Source: a virus
Reading direction: 5' to 3' (one strand)
Virus record (IMG/VR): IMGVR_UViG_3300043778_000098
Span: 1 to 64,000 of that record
DNA: 64,000 nucleotides
Shown here: piece after piece, positions 1,914 through 51,358 of the stretch
Layout: every line of letters starts with the position of its first letter
Position numbering within the stretch: the first letter of the stretch is position 1
The notes under the pieces: model-generated
Database searches by the model: none
What the model saw: the letters and a program-made list of their open reading frames with translations, nothing else
Told to the model about the DNA's origin: nothing
Made by a program: the position numbers and the translations under genes

Positions 1914-2340
1914 GTACATTGACCAGGGGGAGATCGCACGGCGCAACGACCTGGCCAGGCACCACCTGCTGCGGTCCGGGATCCGCCTCAGGGACCTGCC
2001 GGCCGGGAGATCACCGGAGTGGGAGACCGAGTCGGGCCATACCATGGACGTCGCGCTGCACCCGCAGACCGGCGAGTGGACGATGGGCGCCACCCACTAC
2101 GGCGACCCGACCGGGAACGCGCTGCGGTCGATGCTCGGGACGCACGACGAGTCCGAGATACCGGGCAGGCTGTCGGCGGAGCTGCGGCACCGGGAGACCA
2201 CGGGCCACCTGCGCGACATGTGGCTGCGGGCGTCGGGCAACAACGACCCGACGGGGAGGGACGAAGAGGCGCAACGCGTCCCCAGGTACATGGCGGCGAA
2301 CCCGCAGACGATCTTCCTGGACCATTACCAGGGTCGCTAG
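1906..2340 (+). CDS. hypothetical protein, paralog family
   Basis: SGH...W...HYGDP motif shared with the upstream genes. Confidence 0.7.
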   Translation: MSEYIDQGEIARRNDLARHHLLRSGIRLRDLPAGRSPEWETESGHTMDVALHPQTGEWTMGATHYGDPTGNALRSMLGTHDESEIPGRLSAELRHRETTGHLRDMWLRASGNNDPTGRDEEAQRVPRYMAANPQTIFLDHYQGR

Positions 2341-2349
2341 CGATCCGGG

Positions 2350-2432
2350 TAAGCTGGCACGGCCAGAGACCGCAGGCGCCTAAGACCTGCGCAGGTGACG
2401 CTAGCCCGCGCCATGGCGCGGGCTTTCGCTTT
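2350..2432 (+). promoter_or_regulatory. -10 box plus L10-leader autoregulatory RNA and terminator-like hairpin
   Basis: TAAGCT at 2350; AGACCGCAGG..TAA..CCTGCGCAGGTG matches the L10-leader pattern as recalled; hairpin AGCCCGCG/CGCGGGCT plus T-rich tail directly before rplJ. Confidence 0.75.
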
Positions 2433-2444
2433 GAGGGGGCAGCG

Positions 2445-2909
2445 GTGACGCCCGAGCAGAAGGACGGCTGGGTCGGCTGGCTGAAGGGGAAGCTCTCCGA
2501 TCGGCGGTTCATCGTCGTGGGGCACCATCCGGTGGACGTCGGCACGATGGCGGCGCTGCGCGCGTCGCTGCCGACGGGGACGGAGCTGCGGGTCGTCAAG
2601 GGGACCCTCGTCCGGCTGGCGGCCGGGCGGGCCGGGATGCCCGAGGTCCTCCCGCTGATCGCCGGGCCGACGGCCGTGGTCTTCACGGACGCCGACCTCG
2701 CCGTCGCCGCCGCCGCGATCGCCCGGAGTCCCGCCGTCACCGTGCGCGGCGCCGTCGAGGGGAAGCGGCTGCTCTCGCCGTCGCAGGTGAGCGCGATCGC
2801 GGCGATCGGCTCGCGGGAGCGGGCCCTGGCCATGGTGTCGGCGGCGCTGAGGTCGCCGGCGGCGAGGACCGCGACGGCCCTGCGGGCCAGGGGGAGGGAG
2901 ACCCGATGA
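2445..2909 (+). CDS. rplJ: 50S ribosomal protein uL10, divergent
   Basis: GTG start after GAGGGGG; LRASL, VVKGTL (cf. VVKNTL), GPTAVVF and SRE motifs; lies upstream of rplL. Confidence 0.85.
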   Translation: MTPEQKDGWVGWLKGKLSDRRFIVVGHHPVDVGTMAALRASLPTGTELRVVKGTLVRLAAGRAGMPEVLPLIAGPTAVVFTDADLAVAAAAIARSPAVTVRGAVEGKRLLSPSQVSAIAAIGSRERALAMVSAALRSPAARTATALRARGRETR

Positions 2910-3283
2910 TGAAGCTGACCACGGCCGAGCTGATCGACGCGTTCAGGGAGATGACCATCCTGGAGCTGGGCGAGTTCACCGCCGCGTTCGAGGAGCAGTT
3001 CGGGGTGCAGGTCCAGGCATTCCCCGCGAACCAGGACGCGGCTCCTGCTGCGGACGTCCCCGAGGACGAGCAGACGGAGTTCGACGTCGTCCTCCGGGAA
3101 GTCGGCGCCCAGAAGATCCAGGTGATCAAGATAGCCCGCTCGCTGACCGGCCTCGGCCTGAAGGAGGCCAAGGACCTGGTGGAGTCGGCCCCCGTGACGC
3201 TCCTCAAGGGCGCCAGCGCAGGCGCGGCTGCCACGGCCAGGGCGGAGCTGGAGCTGGCCGGGGCGCTCGTCACCGTCAGCTAG
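2906..3283 (+). CDS. rplL: 50S ribosomal protein bL12 (L7/L12)
   Basis: MTILEL..F...FEEQFGV, EQTEFDVVL, KIQVIK, GLGLKEAKDLVESAP. Confidence 0.97.
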   Translation: MMKLTTAELIDAFREMTILELGEFTAAFEEQFGVQVQAFPANQDAAPAADVPEDEQTEFDVVLREVGAQKIQVIKIARSLTGLGLKEAKDLVESAPVTLLKGASAGAAATARAELELAGALVTVS

Positions 3284-3334: not shown

Positions 3335-5617
3335 ATGAGGGTTGCGTACAAGCCGGGCTCGGGGGCCGCTCGCCAGGCGTCGCTCGGCCGCCAGCTGGGG
3401 CGGACGATGGGGGTGGGCGCCGCCGCGTCGGAGCAGATGTCCGCCGACGTGCTGGAGGCGCGCAAGAACCGCCGCGTCAACGCCCGGGCCGCGTCGCTGG
3501 GGCGCCGGACGGCCGGGTACTCCACGGGCGGGGCGGGCGGGTCCGGCTTCTCCGACATCCAGTTCGCGACCGGGCGGCCACGCGACCCGCTGTTCTACTG
3601 GAGGCAGAACAACCTTCCGTATGACTTCTCGCAGAACGAGGAGCTTGCGAAAGTACGCGCGTTTTGCCGCCTGCTGTACCAGACCGACCCGATCGTCGGG
3701 TCGTGCGTCGACATCTTCAGCAAGTTCCCCGTGGTCGGCGCGCACCTGGAGTGCAAGGACAAGCGCCTGGAGGAGTTCTACGAGGACCACTTCTTCGGCG
3801 ACGAGGGCCTCAACTACGGCGAGTTCCTCGTGGACATCGGCCGCGAGTACTACACCACCGGCGAGTCGTGGCCGTTCGCCACCTTCAACGAGGACCTCGG
3901 CGTCTGGGACGACGAGGAGCTGCTCAACCCCGACGACATCAAGGTCGAGCGGTCCCCGTTCCTGAAGGAGCCCCGCTACTTCACCCGGCTGCCGTGGACG
4001 ATCCGGCAGATCCTCACCACCCGCCAGCCCGCCTGGGAATACGCCAAGCTCGTCCAGGAGTACCCCGAGCTGGCCGCCTACACCGCCGAGAACGCGTTCA
4101 TGCCGGTGTCCGGCGTGCTGCTGCGGCAGTTGCGGTTCAAGGGCGACACCTTCAACCTGCGGGGCCTTCCCCTTCTCACCAGGGCGATGCGGAGCATGCT
4201 CCAGCAGGAGATGCTCAACACCGCCCTTGACGCCATCGCCGACCGCCTCTACACCCCGCTCATCCTCTGCAAGCTGGGCGCTTCCGCCACCGACCTGGGA
4301 ACGAGCGTTCCCTGGATTCCGACGGATGATGACCTGGAGAACTTCGAGCTGGCTCTCGACGCGGCCCTGGCGGGAGATTTCCGCGCCCTGATCCACAACT
4401 TCGCGGTCGAGATGGAGCCGGTCTTCGGCCGCGAGAACATGCCGGACCTCACCCCCGACTTCGAGCGCATCGAGGACCGCATCCTCCAGGTGTTCGGCCT
4501 GTCCCGGACGTTCCTGACCGGCGCCGGGGAGGGCCAGACCTACGCCGCCGACGCCCTCAACAAGCAGCTGGTCGAGCAGCTGATGACGACCTACCAGCGG
4601 ATGCTCATGCGGCACGTCCGGCAGCGGGCCCTCATCGTCGCCGAGGCCCAGGAGCATTACGACTACGAGGAGCGGAACGGCCGCCGCTTCGTCATCATGG
4701 AGGAGGTCCTGGAGACCGACGAGGAGAGCGGCGAGAAGCGGATCACCGAGCAGCCCAAGCTCCTGGTGCCTGACCTGAAGTGCGCCGTCCTCAACTTCCG
4801 CGACGAGGACGTCACCCGCCAGTTCGTCGAGGCGCTGCGGGCGTCGGGGATGCCGATCTCCCAGCGGACCCGCAGCCGGGGCCTCGGGCTCGACCTCGAC
4901 GACGAGCGCGAGCGCAGCCAGGACGAGGCGGTCGCCGACATCGTCGCCCAGGCCAAGACCAGGCGGCAGGCGTTCGTCGAGCTGCGCAACGCCGGGCTGC
5001 CCGTCCCGGCCGACCTCATGCAGGACTTCGCGCCGCTCGCCCAGCAGGAGGGCGTGCCCCCGGCGGTCGCCGGCCAGCAGATGATGATCGACCGGATGGG
5101 GGCCTCCCCGGTCCCGCTGCCCGACCTGGCGCCGGTGCCCGCCGACCAGGAGCTGGCCGAGGAGGCCGAGGAGATGGCCGGGGGCCCGGTCAACGCCCCG
5201 CCCGAGGGCGAGGGGGACGAGATGCCGCCGCCGGGAGGGGGCATGGATCAGGTGCCGCCGGAATCCGGCGAGCAGCGCGGGGCCATGCCGAAGGCCGCCC
5301 GCCGGGGGATGCCGAAGCAGGGCGCGCTGTTCCGCCGGGCCGACCGGGTGCGCAGGACGGCGAGGCTCGCCCGGGCGGTCGACGAGGCCCGCGCCGAGGG
5401 CGAGGCCGCCGCGTCCGGCGAGGAGGGCTTCGCGGTGCAGGCCCACTTCTCCGAGTCCCAGGCGGAGGCGCTGGCCGGGCGCGGCGGGTGGGTGTCCGGC
5501 CCGGCGCTGCGCGCCTACCAGGACCCGGCGCACGTCGGCATCCGCGCCCGCCTCGGCGTCACCGAGGAGGACTCGCGCCTGGCCGACTACGAGGCGGTCT
5601 ACAGGCCGTCCAGGTAG
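3335..5617 (+). CDS. portal protein
   Basis: 760 aa, first large gene of the head module; sequence style of Bxz1-type portals as recalled (IADRLYTPLILCKLG, ILQVFGL); acidic C-terminal tail. Confidence 0.8.
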   Translation: MRVAYKPGSGAARQASLGRQLGRTMGVGAAASEQMSADVLEARKNRRVNARAASLGRRTAGYSTGGAGGSGFSDIQFATGRPRDPLFYWRQNNLPYDFSQNEELAKVRAFCRLLYQTDPIVGSCVDIFSKFPVVGAHLECKDKRLEEFYEDHFFGDEGLNYGEFLVDIGREYYTTGESWPFATFNEDLGVWDDEELLNPDDIKVERSPFLKEPRYFTRLPWTIRQILTTRQPAWEYAKLVQEYPELAAYTAENAFMPVSGVLLRQLRFKGDTFNLRGLPLLTRAMRSMLQQEMLNTALDAIADRLYTPLILCKLGASATDLGTSVPWIPTDDDLENFELALDAALAGDFRALIHNFAVEMEPVFGRENMPDLTPDFERIEDRILQVFGLSRTFLTGAGEGQTYAADALNKQLVEQLMTTYQRMLMRHVRQRALIVAEAQEHYDYEERNGRRFVIMEEVLETDEESGEKRITEQPKLLVPDLKCAVLNFRDEDVTRQFVEALRASGMPISQRTRSRGLGLDLDDERERSQDEAVADIVAQAKTRRQAFVELRNAGLPVPADLMQDFAPLAQQEGVPPAVAGQQMMIDRMGASPVPLPDLAPVPADQELAEEAEEMAGGPVNAPPEGEGDEMPPPGGGMDQVPPESGEQRGAMPKAARRGMPKQGALFRRADRVRRTARLARAVDEARAEGEAAASGEEGFAVQAHFSESQAEALAGRGGWVSGPALRAYQDPAHVGIRARLGVTEEDSRLADYEAVYRPSR

Positions 5618-5665: not shown

Positions 5666-6844
5666 GTGAGCAGCCCCCTGGTCTCAGCCGGGACGCCGCA
5701 GATCGAGACCTCCAACTTCACCGGCCTCATCACCCCGTCCTACGGCCAGGCGACGACGGCCGGTAACGTCGCGGTCGCCTGGCTCCAGTGCAACTCCGGC
5801 AGCGCGACCGACCCGTTCAGCCTCGACTCCGGGACCGGCTGGGAGCAGGCCGCAGTCGGCGGCGCGGCGTTCGGCTGGTCGGGCATCTGGTGCAAGCGCG
5901 GCCTGGGCGCCGGGGAGGCCCCGCCGCAATTCGCGATAGCCTCCGGCGACGCCACCGGCGGGATGCTGGCCGAGTTCGACGGCAGCATGATCTCCGGCAT
6001 ACTCGACCAGCCCGGCGACGGCGGCTCGGCGGGGGCCACCGAGACGGCGGCCTGCGCGGCCCCCGACGCCGGGCCCGGCGAGCTGATCGTCTTCGCGGCC
6101 AACTACAACGGCGGCGGCAGCGCCACCACCATCGACGTCACGATGAGCGACTCGTCAGGCGCCCCGGTGACGCCCGTCGTCTACGACAACCCCGGTGACA
6201 CGACCGGCTGGAAGTACGTCTTCGCGTGGGGGCAGGCTGGCGAGGCCGGGGCGGTCGCCGACACGGCGACGTCCGTCCTCGGCGTGTTCAGCGAGGGCGG
6301 CTGCTGCATCGCCTCGATCAGGGCGACCGACCAGGGGGCAGGGGCCTTCTCGGCCGCCGGGGCCCTGTCGGCCGCCGCGAGGGCCACCGCGAACGCCGCC
6401 GCCGCGCTGGCGGCCACGGGCTCGCTGGCAGGGCAGGCCGTCGTCGCCAGGCGGGCCCAGGGGGGCCTCGCTGCCGCGCCGGGGCTGTCGGTCTCCGCCC
6501 GCGTCGTCAAGGCGGCCCAGGCGACCCTGTCCGCCGCGCCATCGCTGGGCGTCCACGGGAGCGTCCTCGCGGCCGGACTCGCCTCCCTGGCGGCCACGGG
6601 GGCGCTCGCGGTGCGGGCCACGGCGGGGCCTGACCTGGAGGCGCTGTGGGAGGCGTACCAGGTCGCGGCGGCCGTCGCAGCCGCCAAGCGGCAGCAGTGG
6701 CGCATGATGCGCCAGGCAGGCGGCACCGACGGGACGGCCGGCTTCCTGTACGGGCAGGCGTACGAGGCCGAGCACCAGGAGGAGACGGCCTACCAGGCTT
6801 TCCTGGCCGCCCAGCGGGAGGTGCACCCCGGCGTCACGGGCTAG
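5666..6844 (+). CDS. putative virion protein (beta-rich domain plus Ala-rich repeats)
   Basis: N-terminal domain clearly paralogous to 19790..20500. Confidence 0.65.
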   Translation: MSSPLVSAGTPQIETSNFTGLITPSYGQATTAGNVAVAWLQCNSGSATDPFSLDSGTGWEQAAVGGAAFGWSGIWCKRGLGAGEAPPQFAIASGDATGGMLAEFDGSMISGILDQPGDGGSAGATETAACAAPDAGPGELIVFAANYNGGGSATTIDVTMSDSSGAPVTPVVYDNPGDTTGWKYVFAWGQAGEAGAVADTATSVLGVFSEGGCCIASIRATDQGAGAFSAAGALSAAARATANAAAALAATGSLAGQAVVARRAQGGLAAAPGLSVSARVVKAAQATLSAAPSLGVHGSVLAAGLASLAATGALAVRATAGPDLEALWEAYQVAAAVAAAKRQQWRMMRQAGGTDGTAGFLYGQAYEAEHQEETAYQAFLAAQREVHPGVTG

Positions 6845-7642: not shown

Positions 7643-10600
7643 ATGCGAAGGCACTCGACCAGGCTGTCCCAGGCGCACGAAGAGGAGCCCGAGGACGACG
7701 GTCTTTCGCGCACCGCCGACCGGGACTACCCCGAGCTGGGCACCATCCTCGACGACCGGCCCGACCCCGGCGGCGTCATCACCGTCATCGGCGCCAGGCG
7801 GCTCGCGAACCTCTACGGCACCGACCAGGACGACCGCAACGGGCAGTTCAACGGCGAGCCCGGCGACGCCGGCATGTACTGGTCCGAGCCAGGCCAGCAG
7901 CAGTGGACGCAGGAGAACGAGCCGCAGGAGCCCGCTCCGCCGCCGCCGTGGGCCATGTCGCCGGTGATGGCCCGGCTGGCGGAGCTGGAGGAGGCCGCCG
8001 GGCTCATCGGCATGAGCCACCACGCCACCTCCATCAACGGCCAGCAGGTCGACGACCACGGCGACGCCCCGCAGCACGGCACCGTCCCCCGCGCGCAGGA
8101 CCCCGACTCCTACGACGACCGCTCCACCGAGGGCGACGGCGACCCCAAGTGGGACGACCCGCTCGACCCCGCCCACAAGGAGGAGTACAACGGGGCGACC
8201 GTCGGCATGTACCCCGAGGGCATCTCGGCGGGCGGCGGCCCCGGCATCTCCGTCGGCCCCGTCACGGCGGAGCTGAACCAGAAGGGGCAGAACGAGCTGC
8301 GCCGCCACATGGCCGAGGACCACCTGGCCGACCCGTCCTTGTGCGCCTCCTCCGAGATCCGCGAGCTGGCCGACGACCACGCCGCCGACCACGACTACGG
8401 CAACGCGGACCACGCGCACGGCCCCGACTACGACCACCGGCCCTTCTGGGACGAGGGCGCCGACGCCGGGCGATACCACGAGTTCACCGGCTCCAGGAGG
8501 ACCGCACGCGTGCCCTGGACCCCGGCCGAGCGCGGCACCCTGCACACCTGGCAGCAGGTGCCGACCGGCACGTGGGGCGACTTCGTGCCGTCGTCGGAGT
8601 TCCCGTTCCTGCGGCCGGGCGAGAGCCAGCACGGACCCGAAGAGGAGGACCTGCGTGCGGAGGGGAGCTGGGAGCCCTATGAGGCCGACGAATACGACTT
8701 CGCCGATAAGCCCAGCTACCAAGGCTGGCCGCAGTCCATGCCCGAGGAGTACGAGCCTCGCGACTGGACCGACATCGCCGACCGGGCCGACCACAGGAAC
8801 GACGCCGGCGGCTGGGTACACCACACGCTCAGCTCCCTGCGGGAGGGCGCCTCCGACGCCGAGGACCGCTACTGGCGGGCGCACCTGCGCGATCAGCACG
8901 GCTGGAGCGCGGGCCAGTTCGAGCGGGCCCGCCAGCGGGGCGACAGCCTCCCCGACATGCACGCGGCCGGGCACGAGGCGGGACTCGCCGGCCACCCGCC
9001 GCACGCCATCTCCGCCGAGCAGCGGCTCCGTGCGCAGCGCGACCTGGAGCGGGAGGACTCCCTCCGCAACATGTTCGGCCCGGACATCACCGAGGACAGG
9101 GCCAAGCTGAGGCCCGAGGGGTACGGGCTCGCCCATCCCGCACGGGGCGGCTATTCCGGCGGCGACCCGATGACGGCGATCATGACGTCCGGGGACCCGC
9201 GCCCGGTCGCCGACCCGTCGCACTGGGAGCAGGCCGACCCGGCCCGGTTCCGCCGCATGATGAGCGCCCTTACGGCGCACGCGCACGACGACGAGGGGGA
9301 CTCGCTCGATGACGGGCCGGCCTCCGGGGACTTCGGGGTCGGCGACGAGGAGGACGAGGACGGCCCGGAGGGATGGCCCGCCGCCGGGGCGGACGTCAGC
9401 GAGACCGGCCGGGCCATGACCCAGGGCCGCTACGACGGGAAGACCAGGCGGAGCGGGGACCAGGGGCACCTGGCCGCGTTCGTCGCCGCCTCGGGCAGCC
9501 CGTCGTTCCGCTTCCACTTCACAGCCTCCTGGCAGGACGTCATCGCCAAGGCGAGGCGGATCCGCGCCGACGGCCACGTCCGCATCACCCACGCCTCGGC
9601 GGGCCTGGTGATCGGCGAGGTGCGGGGCGATCACGACACCTATGAGACGGGCATCCAGCGCCCGGTTGGCAAGCGGCAGTCCATCCAGCACTGGGCCTGC
9701 GGCTGCCCGTGGGCGTCGTTCCACCAGAGCAGGACCGCCGCCAGGAGGCCCGGGGGCTACGCGGGCAGGCCGTGCTCCCACGTGATGGCCCTCCAGTTCG
9801 AGGCGCAGTCGCGGGGGATGTTCGGCCGGCAGTTCGGCGCGGACGAGAACCTCCCGTCGTGGTCGCCCCCGACCGTCGTCGTCAAGTCGATGCCGCCGTG
9901 GGAGGGCGAGCCGCACGCGGGACGGTGGCGCGAGGAGTGGCGCGCCCCGGTCGCCTCGATCCGGCGCGCCGCCACGCCCGACGAGGCGCGCGACGCCGAC
10001 TGGACGCCGGAGGACCGGGACGAGTGGGAGCGTTCCGGCGCGGTCGTCGGCTGGCCGTGCCAGCGCGCCACCGCCGCCCTCCTGCGATCCGGCGCGGACC
10101 CGGAGGAGGTCGACGCGCTCCGGGCGATCGCCGGGCTGGGGCCGGTCAGCGCCGACGCGGCGCGCTCCGGCGCGCTCCTGGCGCGCCACCTGACGGTGGC
10201 GCACGGCCTGCCGGAGGAGAAGGCGGCGGAACTGTGCCGGGACGTCCCCGGCGCTCTCGGGTGGCACGGGGCGCTCCACGAGGCGCGCGCCGCCGTGGCG
10301 ATCCCGCACCGGCACGAACCGCCCGGCGCGCCCGGCGCGGGGCTGCTTCCGGTGGAGGGTCTCCGTGTCACCGCCGACGGCGCGAACGGGCCGTGGGGGA
10401 GCGACAACACCGTCTCGCACCCGCCGCAGAAGCCCTACGGCGCGACGTCGCCGCCGGATAAGGACATGGACCCGGGCAGCTACGGGCCGCTCGCCGCGCC
10501 CGACCCGGAGAACTGGGGCCGCATCGACGCGGGCGACGTCTTCCAGATGCCGATCGGCAACACCGCCGCCGTCCGCCCCGTGCCCGGCGACCTGCACTGG

Positions 10601-11683
10601 CCGGACCAGTCCCAGGACGAGCAGGGCACCTTCAGCTACCAGGACCGGGCCGCCGCCGCCGGGCCGTCAACCGCGATGACCCCGCGCGACCCCAACGGCA
10701 TCCGGATGGAGGAGACGCGAAGAGACTGCCCCTGCTGCGGCGGAACAGGCGAGCACAACACCGGCCGGGAATGCTACGGGTGCGACGCGAGCGGAAGCGC
10801 CGACGGGTATTCCGGGCAGGTCCCGTGCGACGGGACTAAGCCCTACGGCGTTGACAGCGAAGGCCACCAGGTCGAGCTGGACCCGCTCGACGGATGGCAG
10901 CATCTGGACGGGTCCGTCTCCCATGACGACGGGAGCACAGTCAGCGATCATCCCGTCCGCGCAGAGCTGCGCGACGAGCCCGAGGCCGCCCTCCCCTCGA
11001 CCACCGGCGACGACCTGGAGGCGACGGCCGCCGCCGACGGCACCATGGGCGGAGGCGACGCCGGGGACGGGGCAGCCCAGGAGGCCCCGCTGGACGTCGC
11101 GTCCCTCGGCGAGTTCGGGGCGTCGGCGCGGGAAGAGTTCCGCCGCAAGTTCGGCGGCCCGACGGCGATGGGCGACCGGTCGGTGGCCGAGGGACTGTCT
11201 GGCGGGGCGCAGGAGCCCCCGGTGACCGGCCAGCAGCCGGGCATGGGCTCGATGGACGAGCCGCTGACGCCGGACGACCAGTCGATCCAGACGATCGGCG
11301 GCCAGCAGTGGTCGGGCGGCGGCGCAGACTCCGACGAGGTCGAGGTCGAGCCCGGCCAGCCGCAGGGCGGCATCGACGACATCGTGGCGTCGTTCCAGCG
11401 CTCGGCGGCGGCCAGGGCCTACGCCGGCGGGGGCGCGGCGGGAGGGGGCGCTGCGGCCGGGCCCGGGGACATCGCCGGGGCCGCCCGCGCCTACCTGGCG
11501 AAGACGGCCGAGGTCCTCCCCCAAGCCGAGGCCGACGAGCTGATCCGGGAGGGGCGCGGCCAGCGGGCGCGCAACCTCGACCTGCTCGACCTGGAGGGCA
11601 CCCACTACGCGGACGCCGACGAGGAACTCGGCAAGAAGGGGCTGAGCATGGACGACCACGACGATGACGTGATCTTCGCGTGA
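7643..11683 (+). CDS. large acidic head-associated protein with SWIM zinc finger
   Basis: GGGAGG RBS before ATG 7643; WACGCPW...PCSH motif; CPCCGG..CYGCD finger; repeated [RK]xA motifs. Confidence 0.75.
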   Translation: MRRHSTRLSQAHEEEPEDDGLSRTADRDYPELGTILDDRPDPGGVITVIGARRLANLYGTDQDDRNGQFNGEPGDAGMYWSEPGQQQWTQENEPQEPAPPPPWAMSPVMARLAELEEAAGLIGMSHHATSINGQQVDDHGDAPQHGTVPRAQDPDSYDDRSTEGDGDPKWDDPLDPAHKEEYNGATVGMYPEGISAGGGPGISVGPVTAELNQKGQNELRRHMAEDHLADPSLCASSEIRELADDHAADHDYGNADHAHGPDYDHRPFWDEGADAGRYHEFTGSRRTARVPWTPAERGTLHTWQQVPTGTWGDFVPSSEFPFLRPGESQHGPEEEDLRAEGSWEPYEADEYDFADKPSYQGWPQSMPEEYEPRDWTDIADRADHRNDAGGWVHHTLSSLREGASDAEDRYWRAHLRDQHGWSAGQFERARQRGDSLPDMHAAGHEAGLAGHPPHAISAEQRLRAQRDLEREDSLRNMFGPDITEDRAKLRPEGYGLAHPARGGYSGGDPMTAIMTSGDPRPVADPSHWEQADPARFRRMMSALTAHAHDDEGDSLDDGPASGDFGVGDEEDEDGPEGWPAAGADVSETGRAMTQGRYDGKTRRSGDQGHLAAFVAASGSPSFRFHFTASWQDVIAKARRIRADGHVRITHASAGLVIGEVRGDHDTYETGIQRPVGKRQSIQHWACGCPWASFHQSRTAARRPGGYAGRPCSHVMALQFEAQSRGMFGRQFGADENLPSWSPPTVVVKSMPPWEGEPHAGRWREEWRAPVASIRRAATPDEARDADWTPEDRDEWERSGAVVGWPCQRATAALLRSGADPEEVDALRAIAGLGPVSADAARSGALLARHLTVAHGLPEEKAAELCRDVPGALGWHGALHEARAAVAIPHRHEPPGAPGAGLLPVEGLRVTADGANGPWGSDNTVSHPPQKPYGATSPPDKDMDPGSYGPLAAPDPENWGRIDAGDVFQMPIGNTAAVRPVPGDLHWPDQSQDEQGTFSYQDRAAAAGPSTAMTPRDPNGIRMEETRRDCPCCGGTGEHNTGRECYGCDASGSADGYSGQVPCDGTKPYGVDSEGHQVELDPLDGWQHLDGSVSHDDGSTVSDHPVRAELRDEPEAALPSTTGDDLEATAAADGTMGGGDAGDGAAQEAPLDVASLGEFGASAREEFRRKFGGPTAMGDRSVAEGLSGGAQEPPVTGQQPGMGSMDEPLTPDDQSIQTIGGQQWSGGGADSDEVEVEPGQPQGGIDDIVASFQRSAAARAYAGGGAAGGGAAAGPGDIAGAARAYLAKTAEVLPQAEADELIREGRGQRARNLDLLDLEGTHYADADEELGKKGLSMDDHDDDVIFA

Positions 11684-48249: not shown

Positions 48250-48336
48250 GTGGTCCGGCGGCTTGACCGACCGCACGGGGAGGGCCCGGGGCTAGCACCC
48301 GGGTCCACGGAGCCCGTCTTAAGTGGGCCAGTCTCG

Positions 48337-48411
48337 CGCGCCGAGAGGGATTCGAACCCCCAGCACAGGGCTTAGAAGACCCTGGGTCTGTCCGATTGAC
48401 TGTACCGGCGC
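48337..48411 (-). tRNA. trnR: tRNA-Arg(TCT)
   Basis: Loop CT TCT AA. Confidence 0.8.
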
Positions 48412-48417
48412 TCAGTT

Positions 48418-48535
48418 CGGTGCTGGTGTGCTGCTACGCCGAAGGCCTCAGGTCTTTCACCCGGCGTCGGATTCGGCCGGCCCCTATCGCCACTCCTTAG
48501 AGGATGGCTGCCTTTAAGCCAACCTTCCAGCACCG
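48418..48535 (-). ncRNA. 23S rRNA GTPase-associated-centre (H43-H44) mimic RNA
   Basis: GCTGGAAGGTTGGCTTAAAGGCAGCCATCCTCTAAGGAGT..insert..GCGTAGCAGCACACCAGC aligns to 23S nt 1051-1108 with covariation; closed by CGGTGCTGG/CCAGCACCG. Confidence 0.75.
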
Positions 48536-48744
48536 GACGGGCCGCCCGGATCCCCGGCCGTCCGCTCACAGGTTAGCAGCGCTGCCCTCTGGGCTACCGG
48601 CGCCTGTCATCCCACCACCGGAGGGCGGGGAACCTGAACGCCAGTCTGCACCCCCACTCGCCGCGAGCGTGCCATTCGCCGCCCTCCCGGAGGGGGATCT
48701 GGTCCAGGGCCTCGTCCAGCAGCCAGAGCGCGATGCGCATGCTG

Positions 48745-48816
48745 TGCCTCCCCTGGGACTCGAACCCAGAATCCACGGATTAAAGGTCCGCTGCATTGTC
48801 ATTGTGCTAGAGAGGC
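48745..48816 (-). tRNA. trnK: tRNA-Lys(TTT)
   Basis: Loop CC TTT AA. Confidence 0.85.
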
Positions 48817-51074: not shown

Positions 51075-51358
51075 ATTAGCCTCCGGGGTCCTCGTCAGAG
51101 GCTCCTGGGCCGTCTTTGCGTGACGGCAGGTGGCGTGGCCGAGGCCGCCCGGAGGCGCCTTCCCGCCAGGCCCTTTACCACCAGGGGGAATCGAACCCAT
51201 GGGGCCTGACTTGCGGGGTAGCGCTACCCCGCCGCGCGGCCCCGGGGACCGAACCCGGCCTTTCCCTCAGCGAGGAGGTAATCGGGCCCACCAGGGCGGC
51301 CGATCGCCCCCGGGCCGCGTACCACGGGGGCGCCAGGCGGCGCCGTACGCCGCCGCCG

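Follow-up and report, generated by a model that had tools for sequence, protein, structure and literature searches.

The 64,000-nucleotide window analysed here comprises positions 1 to 64,000 of IMG/VR virus record IMGVR_UViG_3300043778_000098, and the source record (79,503 bases, about 70% G+C) is estimated to be 50% complete. Between 46029 and 53174, the window carries 39 tRNA genes, every one of them on the minus strand according to Rfam and ARAGORN. Within this array, and in the same orientation, an element of about 120 nt (48417-48536, minus-strand reading) lies between tRNA-Lys and tRNA-Arg, and its core, 48418-48535, is a copy of hairpin H43, the 1082-1086 turn and hairpin H44 of the GTPase-associated centre (GAC) of 23S rRNA (Table 1; base numbers within the element, such as A1067, follow the E. 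coli 23S numbering). In the ribosome, the GAC binds protein uL11, docks EF-G, EF-Tu, IF2 and RF3, is required for RelA activation and is the target of thiopeptides. The element represents a selected family of RNA genes with a GAC-copy core, a conclusion that we regard as settled.

The original prediction, made from the letters of the window alone, described a free-standing mimic of the GAC at 48418-48535, and the minus strand does read as it stated. Compared with genuine 23S GACs (loci L204, L192, L200 and L050), the window copy is identical at 30-33 of the 40 positions of the 5' segment (1051-1090), with 33 of 40 the same in L204, and at 10-12 of the 18 positions of the 3' segment; against the same four loci, the 23S consensus given in the prediction proved essentially right. 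The phage RNA has in common with the 23S GAC (the top of H42, H43 and H44; E. coli 1051-1108; the 58-nt uL11/thiostrepton fragment) the H43 stem and loop, U1060, A1088, the 1082:1086 lone pair with its UAA, the pairs 1091:1100 and 1092:1099 with a GUARYA loop, and A1103. In the window copy, the H43 hairpin, the 1082:1086 pair, U1060, A1088, G1071 and C1072 are all present, the H43-like loop reads UUAAAGGC, and A1067 (position 48515) and A1095 (position 48435) are retained, as had been claimed.

The phage RNA differs from the 23S GAC in being free-standing, with a closing helix of arbitrary sequence and no surrounding rRNA. Moreover, its H44 is split at U1090/G1091 by a stem-closed domain and a UUUR linker, so that H44 of the window copy is not continuous (48 nt and UUCG stand between 1090 and 1091), and it has A at 1101, whereas real loci read ...GAGUGNGUAAYANCUCAC with U1101. 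A1067 and A1095 are not invariant in the phage RNA, and the L10-binding part of H42 is absent from it. The window copy is not embedded in a 23S gene, its flanks being tRNAs. Rfam 15 at gathering threshold returned only tRNAs over the whole window, with no LSU_rRNA_bacteria (RF02541), and a search of 48250-48750 at E<=10 gave only tRNA and noise, without an L10_leader, group I intron (RF00028) or LSU match, which bears out the earlier statement that no other rRNA sequence flanks the element. No INPHARED phage was matched by BLAST when either this region or its 20-kb surroundings served as the query. The H43 pattern, with 17 specified bases, occurs once in the window even at three mismatches (0.07 expected), and the element is single-copy across the whole record.

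Table 1. Parts of the GAC-like element, its neighbouring tRNA genes and the stalk-protein genes in the window
Feature	Position	Strand	Remarks
Closing helix, 5' strand CGGUGCUGG	48527..48535	-	position corresponds to top of H42; pairs with 48418-48426 (9 bp)
A1056 and H43-like hairpin A1057-U1081 (GGUUGGCUUAAAGGCAGCCAUCC, preceded by AA)	48501..48526	-	exact GGTTGGCTTANNNGCAGCCA match
C1082-UAA-G1086 lone pair and triloop (UCUAAG)	48496..48500	-	C:G in window copy
GAGU, 1087-1090, 5' strand of H44 base	48492..48495	-	pairs G1087:C1102, U1090:A1101
Variable domain, 48 nt	48444..48491	-	insert stem GGC/GCC, 48489-48491 with 48444-48446
UUCG linker	48440..48443	-	family consensus UUUG/UUUA
GCGUAGCAGCAC, top of H44, 1091-1102	48428..48439	-	G1091:C1100, C1092:G1099, loop GUAGCA, then A1101, C1102
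A1103 and closing helix, 3' strand CCAGCACCG	48418..48427	-	complementary to 48527-48535
tRNA-Arg(tct)	48336..48411	-	6 nt downstream of element; ARAGORN, Rfam
tRNA-Lys(ttt)	48744-48816	-	207 nt upstream of element
uL10, Pfam Ribosomal_L10 (48 bits)	ORF 2019-2909	+	true start probably near 2400-2450
bL12, full length	2906-3283	+	dimerisation and C-terminal Pfam domains

An exact-pattern scan of 2.9 million IMG/VR viral contigs for the H43 core gave at least 64 loci. Three of the matches listed belong to genuine 23S, reading on with ...AAAGAAAGCGUAAUAGCUCAC, a few others match by chance within coding sequence, and the remainder share the architecture of the window element. Together with two further IMG/VR scans anchored elsewhere, on UUUGGCGUANNAGCAC and on GCAGCCAYCNUNUAANGAGU, at least 137 distinct members were obtained, with lengths of 95-437 nt and G+C contents of 28%-66%; these counts are lower bounds with a bias specific to each pattern, and each region of the RNA was judged on a set selected elsewhere. 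A family-specific pattern matched at only 30 places in 185,579 species genomes, about half of them real 23S genes with a variant H44, and the remaining matches, in isolates and metagenome-assembled genomes, are presumably family members in prophages or binned phage contigs. In 36 further loci searched with Rfam, the elements had no family match, the matches elsewhere being tRNA, tmRNA, one RNase P RNA and one group I intron. Hence no existing Rfam family, the outcome named beforehand as the test of novelty, was found for the window copy or for these loci, and full-text literature searches found no description of a GAC-like phage RNA family. Rfam 15 thus lacks the family, the published phage genomes that carry it leave it unannotated, and it is apparently undescribed.

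All parts of a member follow in a fixed order: a closing helix of arbitrary sequence (6-12 bp), RA, H43, optionally one or two hairpins at 1077|1078, YCNUNUAANGAGU, a stem-closed variable domain, UUUR, GCGUANNAGCAC, A and the second strand of the closing helix. In the window copy, a closing helix of 9 bp surrounds the whole element, and the insert that follows GAGU is closed by GGC...GCC and succeeded by UUCG and GCGUAGCAGCACA. The branched insert of about 50 nt in the original prediction is correct as to size and site, with 48 nt plus the conserved 4-nt linker and a closing stem; its branching is not borne out, the interior being predicted as one irregular, poorly defined stem-loop with internal loops and bulges.

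Across the members listed, the insert measures between about 23 nt and about 340 nt. That of the window copy, among the smallest of the family, has neither the commonest insert motif, CACCCCG..GGUAAGG (about 25% of members), nor a hairpin resembling the sarcin-ricin loop (SRL), and its GUGAAAGACCUGAG-like 3' part is in common with L212. No insert motif is universal among the members listed. The shortest of them, L230 (13970-14064, 95 nt), consists of the GAC core and one hairpin; because minimal members are reduced in this way, the conserved function must sit in the core. An SRL-like hairpin, CUAGUACGAGAGGGAC or AGUACGGGAGGAA, occurs in the insert of two long members, L055 (element 6454-6832) and L013 (element 3688-4068), and was rejected as a general trait (2 of the 137 members listed). 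A derivation of the inserts from other 23S regions, suggested by H45/H46-like strings, was likewise rejected, since blastn-short of 38 inserts against three 23S pieces gave chance 10-16-mers only.

The helices of the family are maintained by double changes. In a structure-blind MAFFT alignment of 18 members (A1), 90.9% of cells were paired versus 72.3% in shuffles and the covariation score was 0.504 versus 0.146, neither value being reached in any of 500 shuffles; when partners were shifted by 1-3 columns, 34-52% were paired. All nine closing-helix pairs, all five insert-stem pairs and 1082:1086 change on both sides. A model-fitted alignment of 73 matches (A3), which leans to the model by construction, gave 88.7% paired versus 68.0%. 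In the set selected only on 1071-1090, 1058:1080 was UA in 19, AU in 19, GC in 10 and CG in 1; 1082:1086 was UA in 25, CG in 13 and AU in 12; 1092:1099 was CG in 49 and UA in 2; and 1091:1100 was GC in 50 and UA in 1. Single variants that keep a pair were A1087:U1102 in L065, A1091:U1100 in L032 and U1090-G1101 in Pseudomonas phage pf16, and the linker positions (n = 51) were U in 51, U in 50, U in 48, and G in 40 with A in 11. The compensatory changes read from the window copy alone are therefore seen family-wide in the closing helix and at 1082:1086, while the pair U1090:A1101 is fixed (U-G in pf16). In real 23S of DPANN archaea and Candidate Phyla Radiation bacteria, 1092:1099 is U:A, A:U or G:C (L184, L187, L190, L194, L195, L203, L207 and L211), so that this pair at the top of H44 also covaries naturally in rRNA.

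A covariance model (R1) was built from 16 short members, with 152 positions and 27 pairs; its E-values are rough owing to a short calibration. The window copy scored 96.8 bits (E 5e-27), a value that arises partly by construction as this copy is in the seed, and non-seed members scored 60-113 bits. Genuine 23S GACs of bacteria and archaea were also detected, at 40-57 bits (E 1e-10 to 1e-15), indicating that the kinship with the GAC is statistical and not just visual. Furthermore, the members have in common derived traits that are not found in rRNA, namely A1101 (51 of 51), the UUUR linker and the insertion point, which argues that the family arose once and then spread among phages, rather than by repeated capture from hosts.

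These data bear directly on the possibility that the element is a functionless, decaying fragment of host 23S acquired by illegitimate recombination. Its high rRNA identity would suit such an origin, and real rRNA pieces do occur on some phage contigs (e.g. L017, L050 and L054). However, at least 137 members have derived characters absent from rRNA, double changes maintain the helices, position and strand in tRNA arrays are constant, the inserts are unlike other 23S regions, and the element is present once with no further rRNA in the record, so we find decay scarcely credible. Instead, the proposal of a selected phage non-coding RNA is strongly supported by the number of homologues, their single architecture, the heavy covariation and the constant orientation in tRNA arrays.

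For 86 members, the distance to a tRNA or tmRNA on the same strand is at most 10 nt in 28, at most 500 nt in 48 and at most 2 kb in 56, and no opposite-strand tRNA was found at these loci. In L003, L041, L012 and L013, the element occupies nearly all of the space separating two tRNAs, leaving 0-4 nt, so that RNase P and the 3'-end enzymes would release it, and in L004, a complete 166-kb phage, it stands in a tRNA order resembling that of the window. The processing of tRNAs is likely to free the element from the transcript of the array, and its tertiary fold is likely to resemble that of the GAC. Complete but unannotated copies were found in cultured phages with tractable hosts: in pf16 (Pseudomonas putida) between tRNA-Asn and tRNA-Pro, in Xanthomonas phage XacN1 (AP018399.1 ~150300-150630; L179:2457-2780) after a 2'-5' RNA ligase gene, in Cronobacter phage GAP32 in an intergenic gap with hypothetical genes on either side, and in Pectobacterium phage CBB (L105). 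By BLAST, the 5' core (about 35-44 nt) was matched in Astolliot, Milchi, UNO-G1W1, Aeromonas 4_4572, Paenibacillus Pd_22F, Erwinia Kaldavass and Xanthomonas XbC2, all except two of these matches falling outside annotated features. The XacN1 copy is preceded by a promoter-like site, TTGACT-17-TAATAT, ending about 10 nt before the closing helix, and followed by a long G+C terminator-like hairpin with a U-run (recognised by eye; missed in the terminator scan because of its loop limit), and it was therefore counted as an independent gene.

A different setting was found in L037, where a group I intron (RF00028, 64.8 bits, E 6e-16) at 4597-5025 (+) interrupts a primase-helicase gene, with Toprim upstream and the DnaB C-terminal part downstream. 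The P6 extension of this intron (about 192 nt, 4728-4926, +) is a complete family member comprising the whole GAC-like element. L037 is alone in this respect among the sampled members, and residence in group I introns as a general property was rejected; around the window copy, there is no RF00028 match.

The use of the element as a peripheral P6 extension raises the possibility of a protein-independent module, in which the GAC fold would serve as a compact, nuclease-resistant scaffold for the inserted domain, or would aid the folding or processing of the array transcript, with the insert as the working part. The inserts are indeed large, diverse and modular, with one motif recurring in about a quarter of members, and the GAC folds autonomously (PMC6239185). 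On the other hand, minimal members reduce the insert to a plain hairpin without conserved sequence, no insert motif is universal, and the exposed uL11-contact bases are as strictly conserved as those that form the fold. We thus consider a purely structural role unlikely.

The pattern of conservation is informative about the ligand. In a set selected elsewhere, A1057, G1059, U1060, G1062-C1064, U1066, A1088, G1093, A1098, A1101 and A1103 (51 of 51) were invariant, as are the stem bases of H43 throughout the family. Among the loop bases, conservation is lowest at A1067 (A in 31 of 42, 74%; G in 7, C in 3 and U in 1) and A1095 (A in 45 of 51, 88%), which we take to be the bases contacted by factors in the ribosome. 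The main insertion point, 1090|1091, falls outside the uL11 footprint: in an X-ray-based list, the C-terminal domain of uL11 touches 1058-1060, 1062-1065, 1075-1083 and 1088 (Jonker et al., PMC1802607). These interface bases are rRNA-like in the window copy, and in the family they are invariant or covary as in rRNA. Thiostrepton sits on A1067/A1095, between both loops and the uL11 N-terminal domain, and needs these bases (PMC1802607). The GAC is an autonomous folding unit, and its tertiary fold is required for uL11 binding (PMC6239185). With the uL11 footprint invariant and A1067 and A1095 relaxed, the function common to the family more probably involves uL11, or the fold itself, than the soaking up of a thiopeptide or a GTPase. 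Of the ligands listed in the original prediction (L11, Rel, an rRNA-targeting toxin or a thiopeptide), uL11 thus comes out as the favoured one, and the variation at A1067 and A1095 disfavours a thiopeptide or GTPase sponge across the family.

The thiopeptide idea suits the window phage better than it does the family. Genes for a tail sheath, a protease-like head protein and a portal mark this phage as tailed and of the contractile type. The portal shares 39.6% identity with the portals of Mycobacterium myophages of about 153-156 kb, which we take to be those of cluster C, and with these as the nearest relatives of the portal an actinobacterial host is likely. An RNA that soaks up thiostrepton-class thiopeptides could protect translation in such a host, the GAC-uL11 complex being the thiostrepton site (PMC1802607) and A1067 and A1095 both being kept in the window copy. 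Yet the family also occurs in phages of Pseudomonas, Xanthomonas, Aeromonas, Cronobacter, Pectobacterium, Erwinia and Paenibacillus, and A1067, which thiostrepton requires, is replaced in about a quarter of the members. A thiopeptide sponge is therefore very improbable as the role of the RNA.

The window phage also encodes two proteins of the ribosomal stalk. The genes for uL10 and bL12 form an rplJ-rplL-like pair immediately upstream of the portal gene (3335-5617), 45 kb from the RNA element. Viral bL12 is known, and in the available text of Mizuno et al. 2019 (PMC6375957), in which 14 viral ribosomal proteins are listed, uL10 figures among the components of the stalk but is not described as viral; an earlier report of a phage uL10 was not found in the literature searched, as far as its text is available. 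Among 43 other RNA-carrying records, bL12 gave weak or partial matches in 3 and was absent from 40, and phage uL10/bL12 as a family trait was accordingly rejected. The binding site of L10 is the H42 region. The RNA lacks this region, and its closing helix has no conserved sequence. Because bL12 is rare in the other records and the L10 site of H42 is absent, the coincidence of stalk genes and RNA was kept out of the family mechanism; it is suggestive for this phage. The link to phage L10-L12 drawn in the original prediction is therefore real here and does not extend to the family.

The stalk genes are also relevant to another explanation, in which some protein that reads the factor site is lured away from ribosomes by the RNA, either alone or in complex with uL11; candidates are a translational GTPase, a stringent factor of the RelA type and a host-defence toxin directed at ribosomes. 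Both factor-contacting loops are rRNA-like in most members, including the window copy, L055 and L013 add a hairpin resembling the SRL, the other rRNA element of the factor site, and the window phage supplies uL10 and bL12. Against this, A1067 and A1095 vary whereas the bases that form the fold do not, few members carry the SRL-like hairpin, nearly all other records lack bL12, and the RNA has no H42 site for L10, which together make such a bait doubtful. A tentative possibility is that the RNA together with host uL11, perhaps joined in this phage by its own uL10 and bL12, forms a free-standing factor-docking mimic that captures a translational GTPase, RelA or a ribosome-directed anti-phage toxin. 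If true, this would be the first rRNA-domain decoy of viruses, found across phages of many bacterial phyla, with an SRL copy added in rare members.

We favour, with a probability of about 0.55, the reading that the element is a selected phage non-coding RNA which is processed from the tRNA array, adopts the GAC fold off the ribosome and binds host uL11. According to this proposal, the element would be transcribed with the tRNA array and freed by tRNA-processing enzymes as a stable RNA of about 120 nt, its 3' end being set by RNase P cleavage of tRNA-Arg. The H43 and H44 hairpins would pack side by side upon the closing helix, and ribosome-like tertiary contacts would hold the core, namely U1060-A1088, the 1082:1086 turn, and G1071/C1072 on 1091:1100 and 1092:1099; the U1060-A1088 contact and the G1071/C1072 docking are presumably those of the 1999 L11-RNA crystal structures. 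The variable domain of the RNA would be plugged into the backbone between U1090 and G1091, away from the uL11 footprint. Its most probable molecular function would be to engage, like the 58-nt rRNA fragment, the C-terminal domain of host uL11, giving a small ribonucleoprotein that imitates the ribosomal site. A search of 50 records, 19 of them with a completeness of at least 90%, found no phage-encoded uL11.

Conjecturally, forming this ribonucleoprotein might withdraw uL11 from ribosomes and so, for instance, dampen the activation of RelA that depends on uL11, or it might lure a protein that recognises the surface made by uL11 and the GAC; alternatively, uL11 might be a folding cofactor, which would also account for the intron case. 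We infer the physiological role of the RNA, like its fold, its processing and its binding of uL11, from sequence, covariation and genomic context.

Several observations weigh against uL11 binding by a GAC-like fold. The chief sequence-level argument against universal uL11 binding is the insertion at 1077|1078, where one or two hairpins stand within the footprint of the uL11 C-terminal domain in 12 of 86 members (about 14%). H44 is interrupted in the family, unlike in any rRNA GAC, and A1067 and A1095 are still mostly A, leaving room for some factor-type contact. A sponge for free uL11 would have no obvious pay-off in a short lytic cycle unless uL11 exchanges on ribosomes. Moreover, the unconstrained minimum free energy of 48417-48536 is -53.2 kcal/mol, in a fold that pairs GGUUGGCUU of H43 with GGGGCCGGCC of the insert and loses H43, whereas the family-consistent secondary structure reaches only -34.8 kcal/mol, and the minimum-free-energy z-score of the window copy is a modest -2.44. 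The competing pairing between H43 and the insert may be an artefact of high G+C content or a real alternative conformer. Minimum-free-energy folding alone was discarded as a guide to the structure of this G+C-rich copy, as it chooses the competing pairing.

Off-ribosome copies of rRNA sites bound by ribosomal proteins also occur in ribosomal-protein mRNA leaders (L10_leader, RF00557; the L1 and S8 sites). Different from the phage RNA, which is a separate gene, nearly identical to rRNA and far from ribosomal-protein genes, these leaders are cellular, loosely rRNA-like and cis-regulatory in their own mRNA; we know of no uL11 leader of a comparable kind. The decoy logic proposed for the phage RNA would resemble that of 6S RNA, which mimics open promoter DNA and holds RNA polymerase, and of CsrB/RsmZ, which hold CsrA. 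These RNAs differ in protein, fold and origin, being neither rRNA copies nor borne in phage tRNA arrays. GOLLD and ROOL, large RNAs of phages and prophages, are likewise structured non-coding RNAs without an assigned function, typically located beside tRNA genes in phage genomes (PMC12286853). They are RNA-only cages with no relation in sequence or structure to the phage GAC RNA of 95-437 nt, and their Rfam models match none of the 36 loci. In the fragmented mitochondrial rRNA of Plasmodium, the GTPase-centre piece is reportedly encoded separately. Such pieces are also small RNAs of their own, but they are part of a working ribosome, whereas the phage RNA closes on itself and the host 23S is intact.

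The known translation-related cargo of phages consists of tRNAs, tmRNA and a few ribosomal proteins, and to our knowledge no phage copy of an rRNA functional centre has been described before. A selected, free-standing GAC mimic would, if true, represent a new viral route to interfere with or exploit host translation and stress signalling. In addition, the GAC fold appears portable, tolerating insertions at two defined sites and having been grafted onto a group I intron, which could be useful for RNA structural biology and design.

Further features were noted in the tRNA arrays. In the window, the stretch between tRNA-Lys and the element (48537-48743, minus strand) contains a G+C-rich hairpin at about 48537-48570, abutting the closing helix, and a 48-codon ORF with its ATG at 48740. 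At 51233-51333 (minus strand), ARAGORN calls a 101-nt tRNA-Gln(ctg) for which there is no Rfam tRNA call, perhaps an insertion-bearing tRNA or else a tRNA-like RNA. In the array of L062, a match to bacterial RNase P RNA class A (10015-10286, plus strand, 272 nt; 120 bits, gathering threshold 100) is followed by a tRNA, a tmRNA (10752-11098) and, 5 nt further on, the GAC-like RNA.

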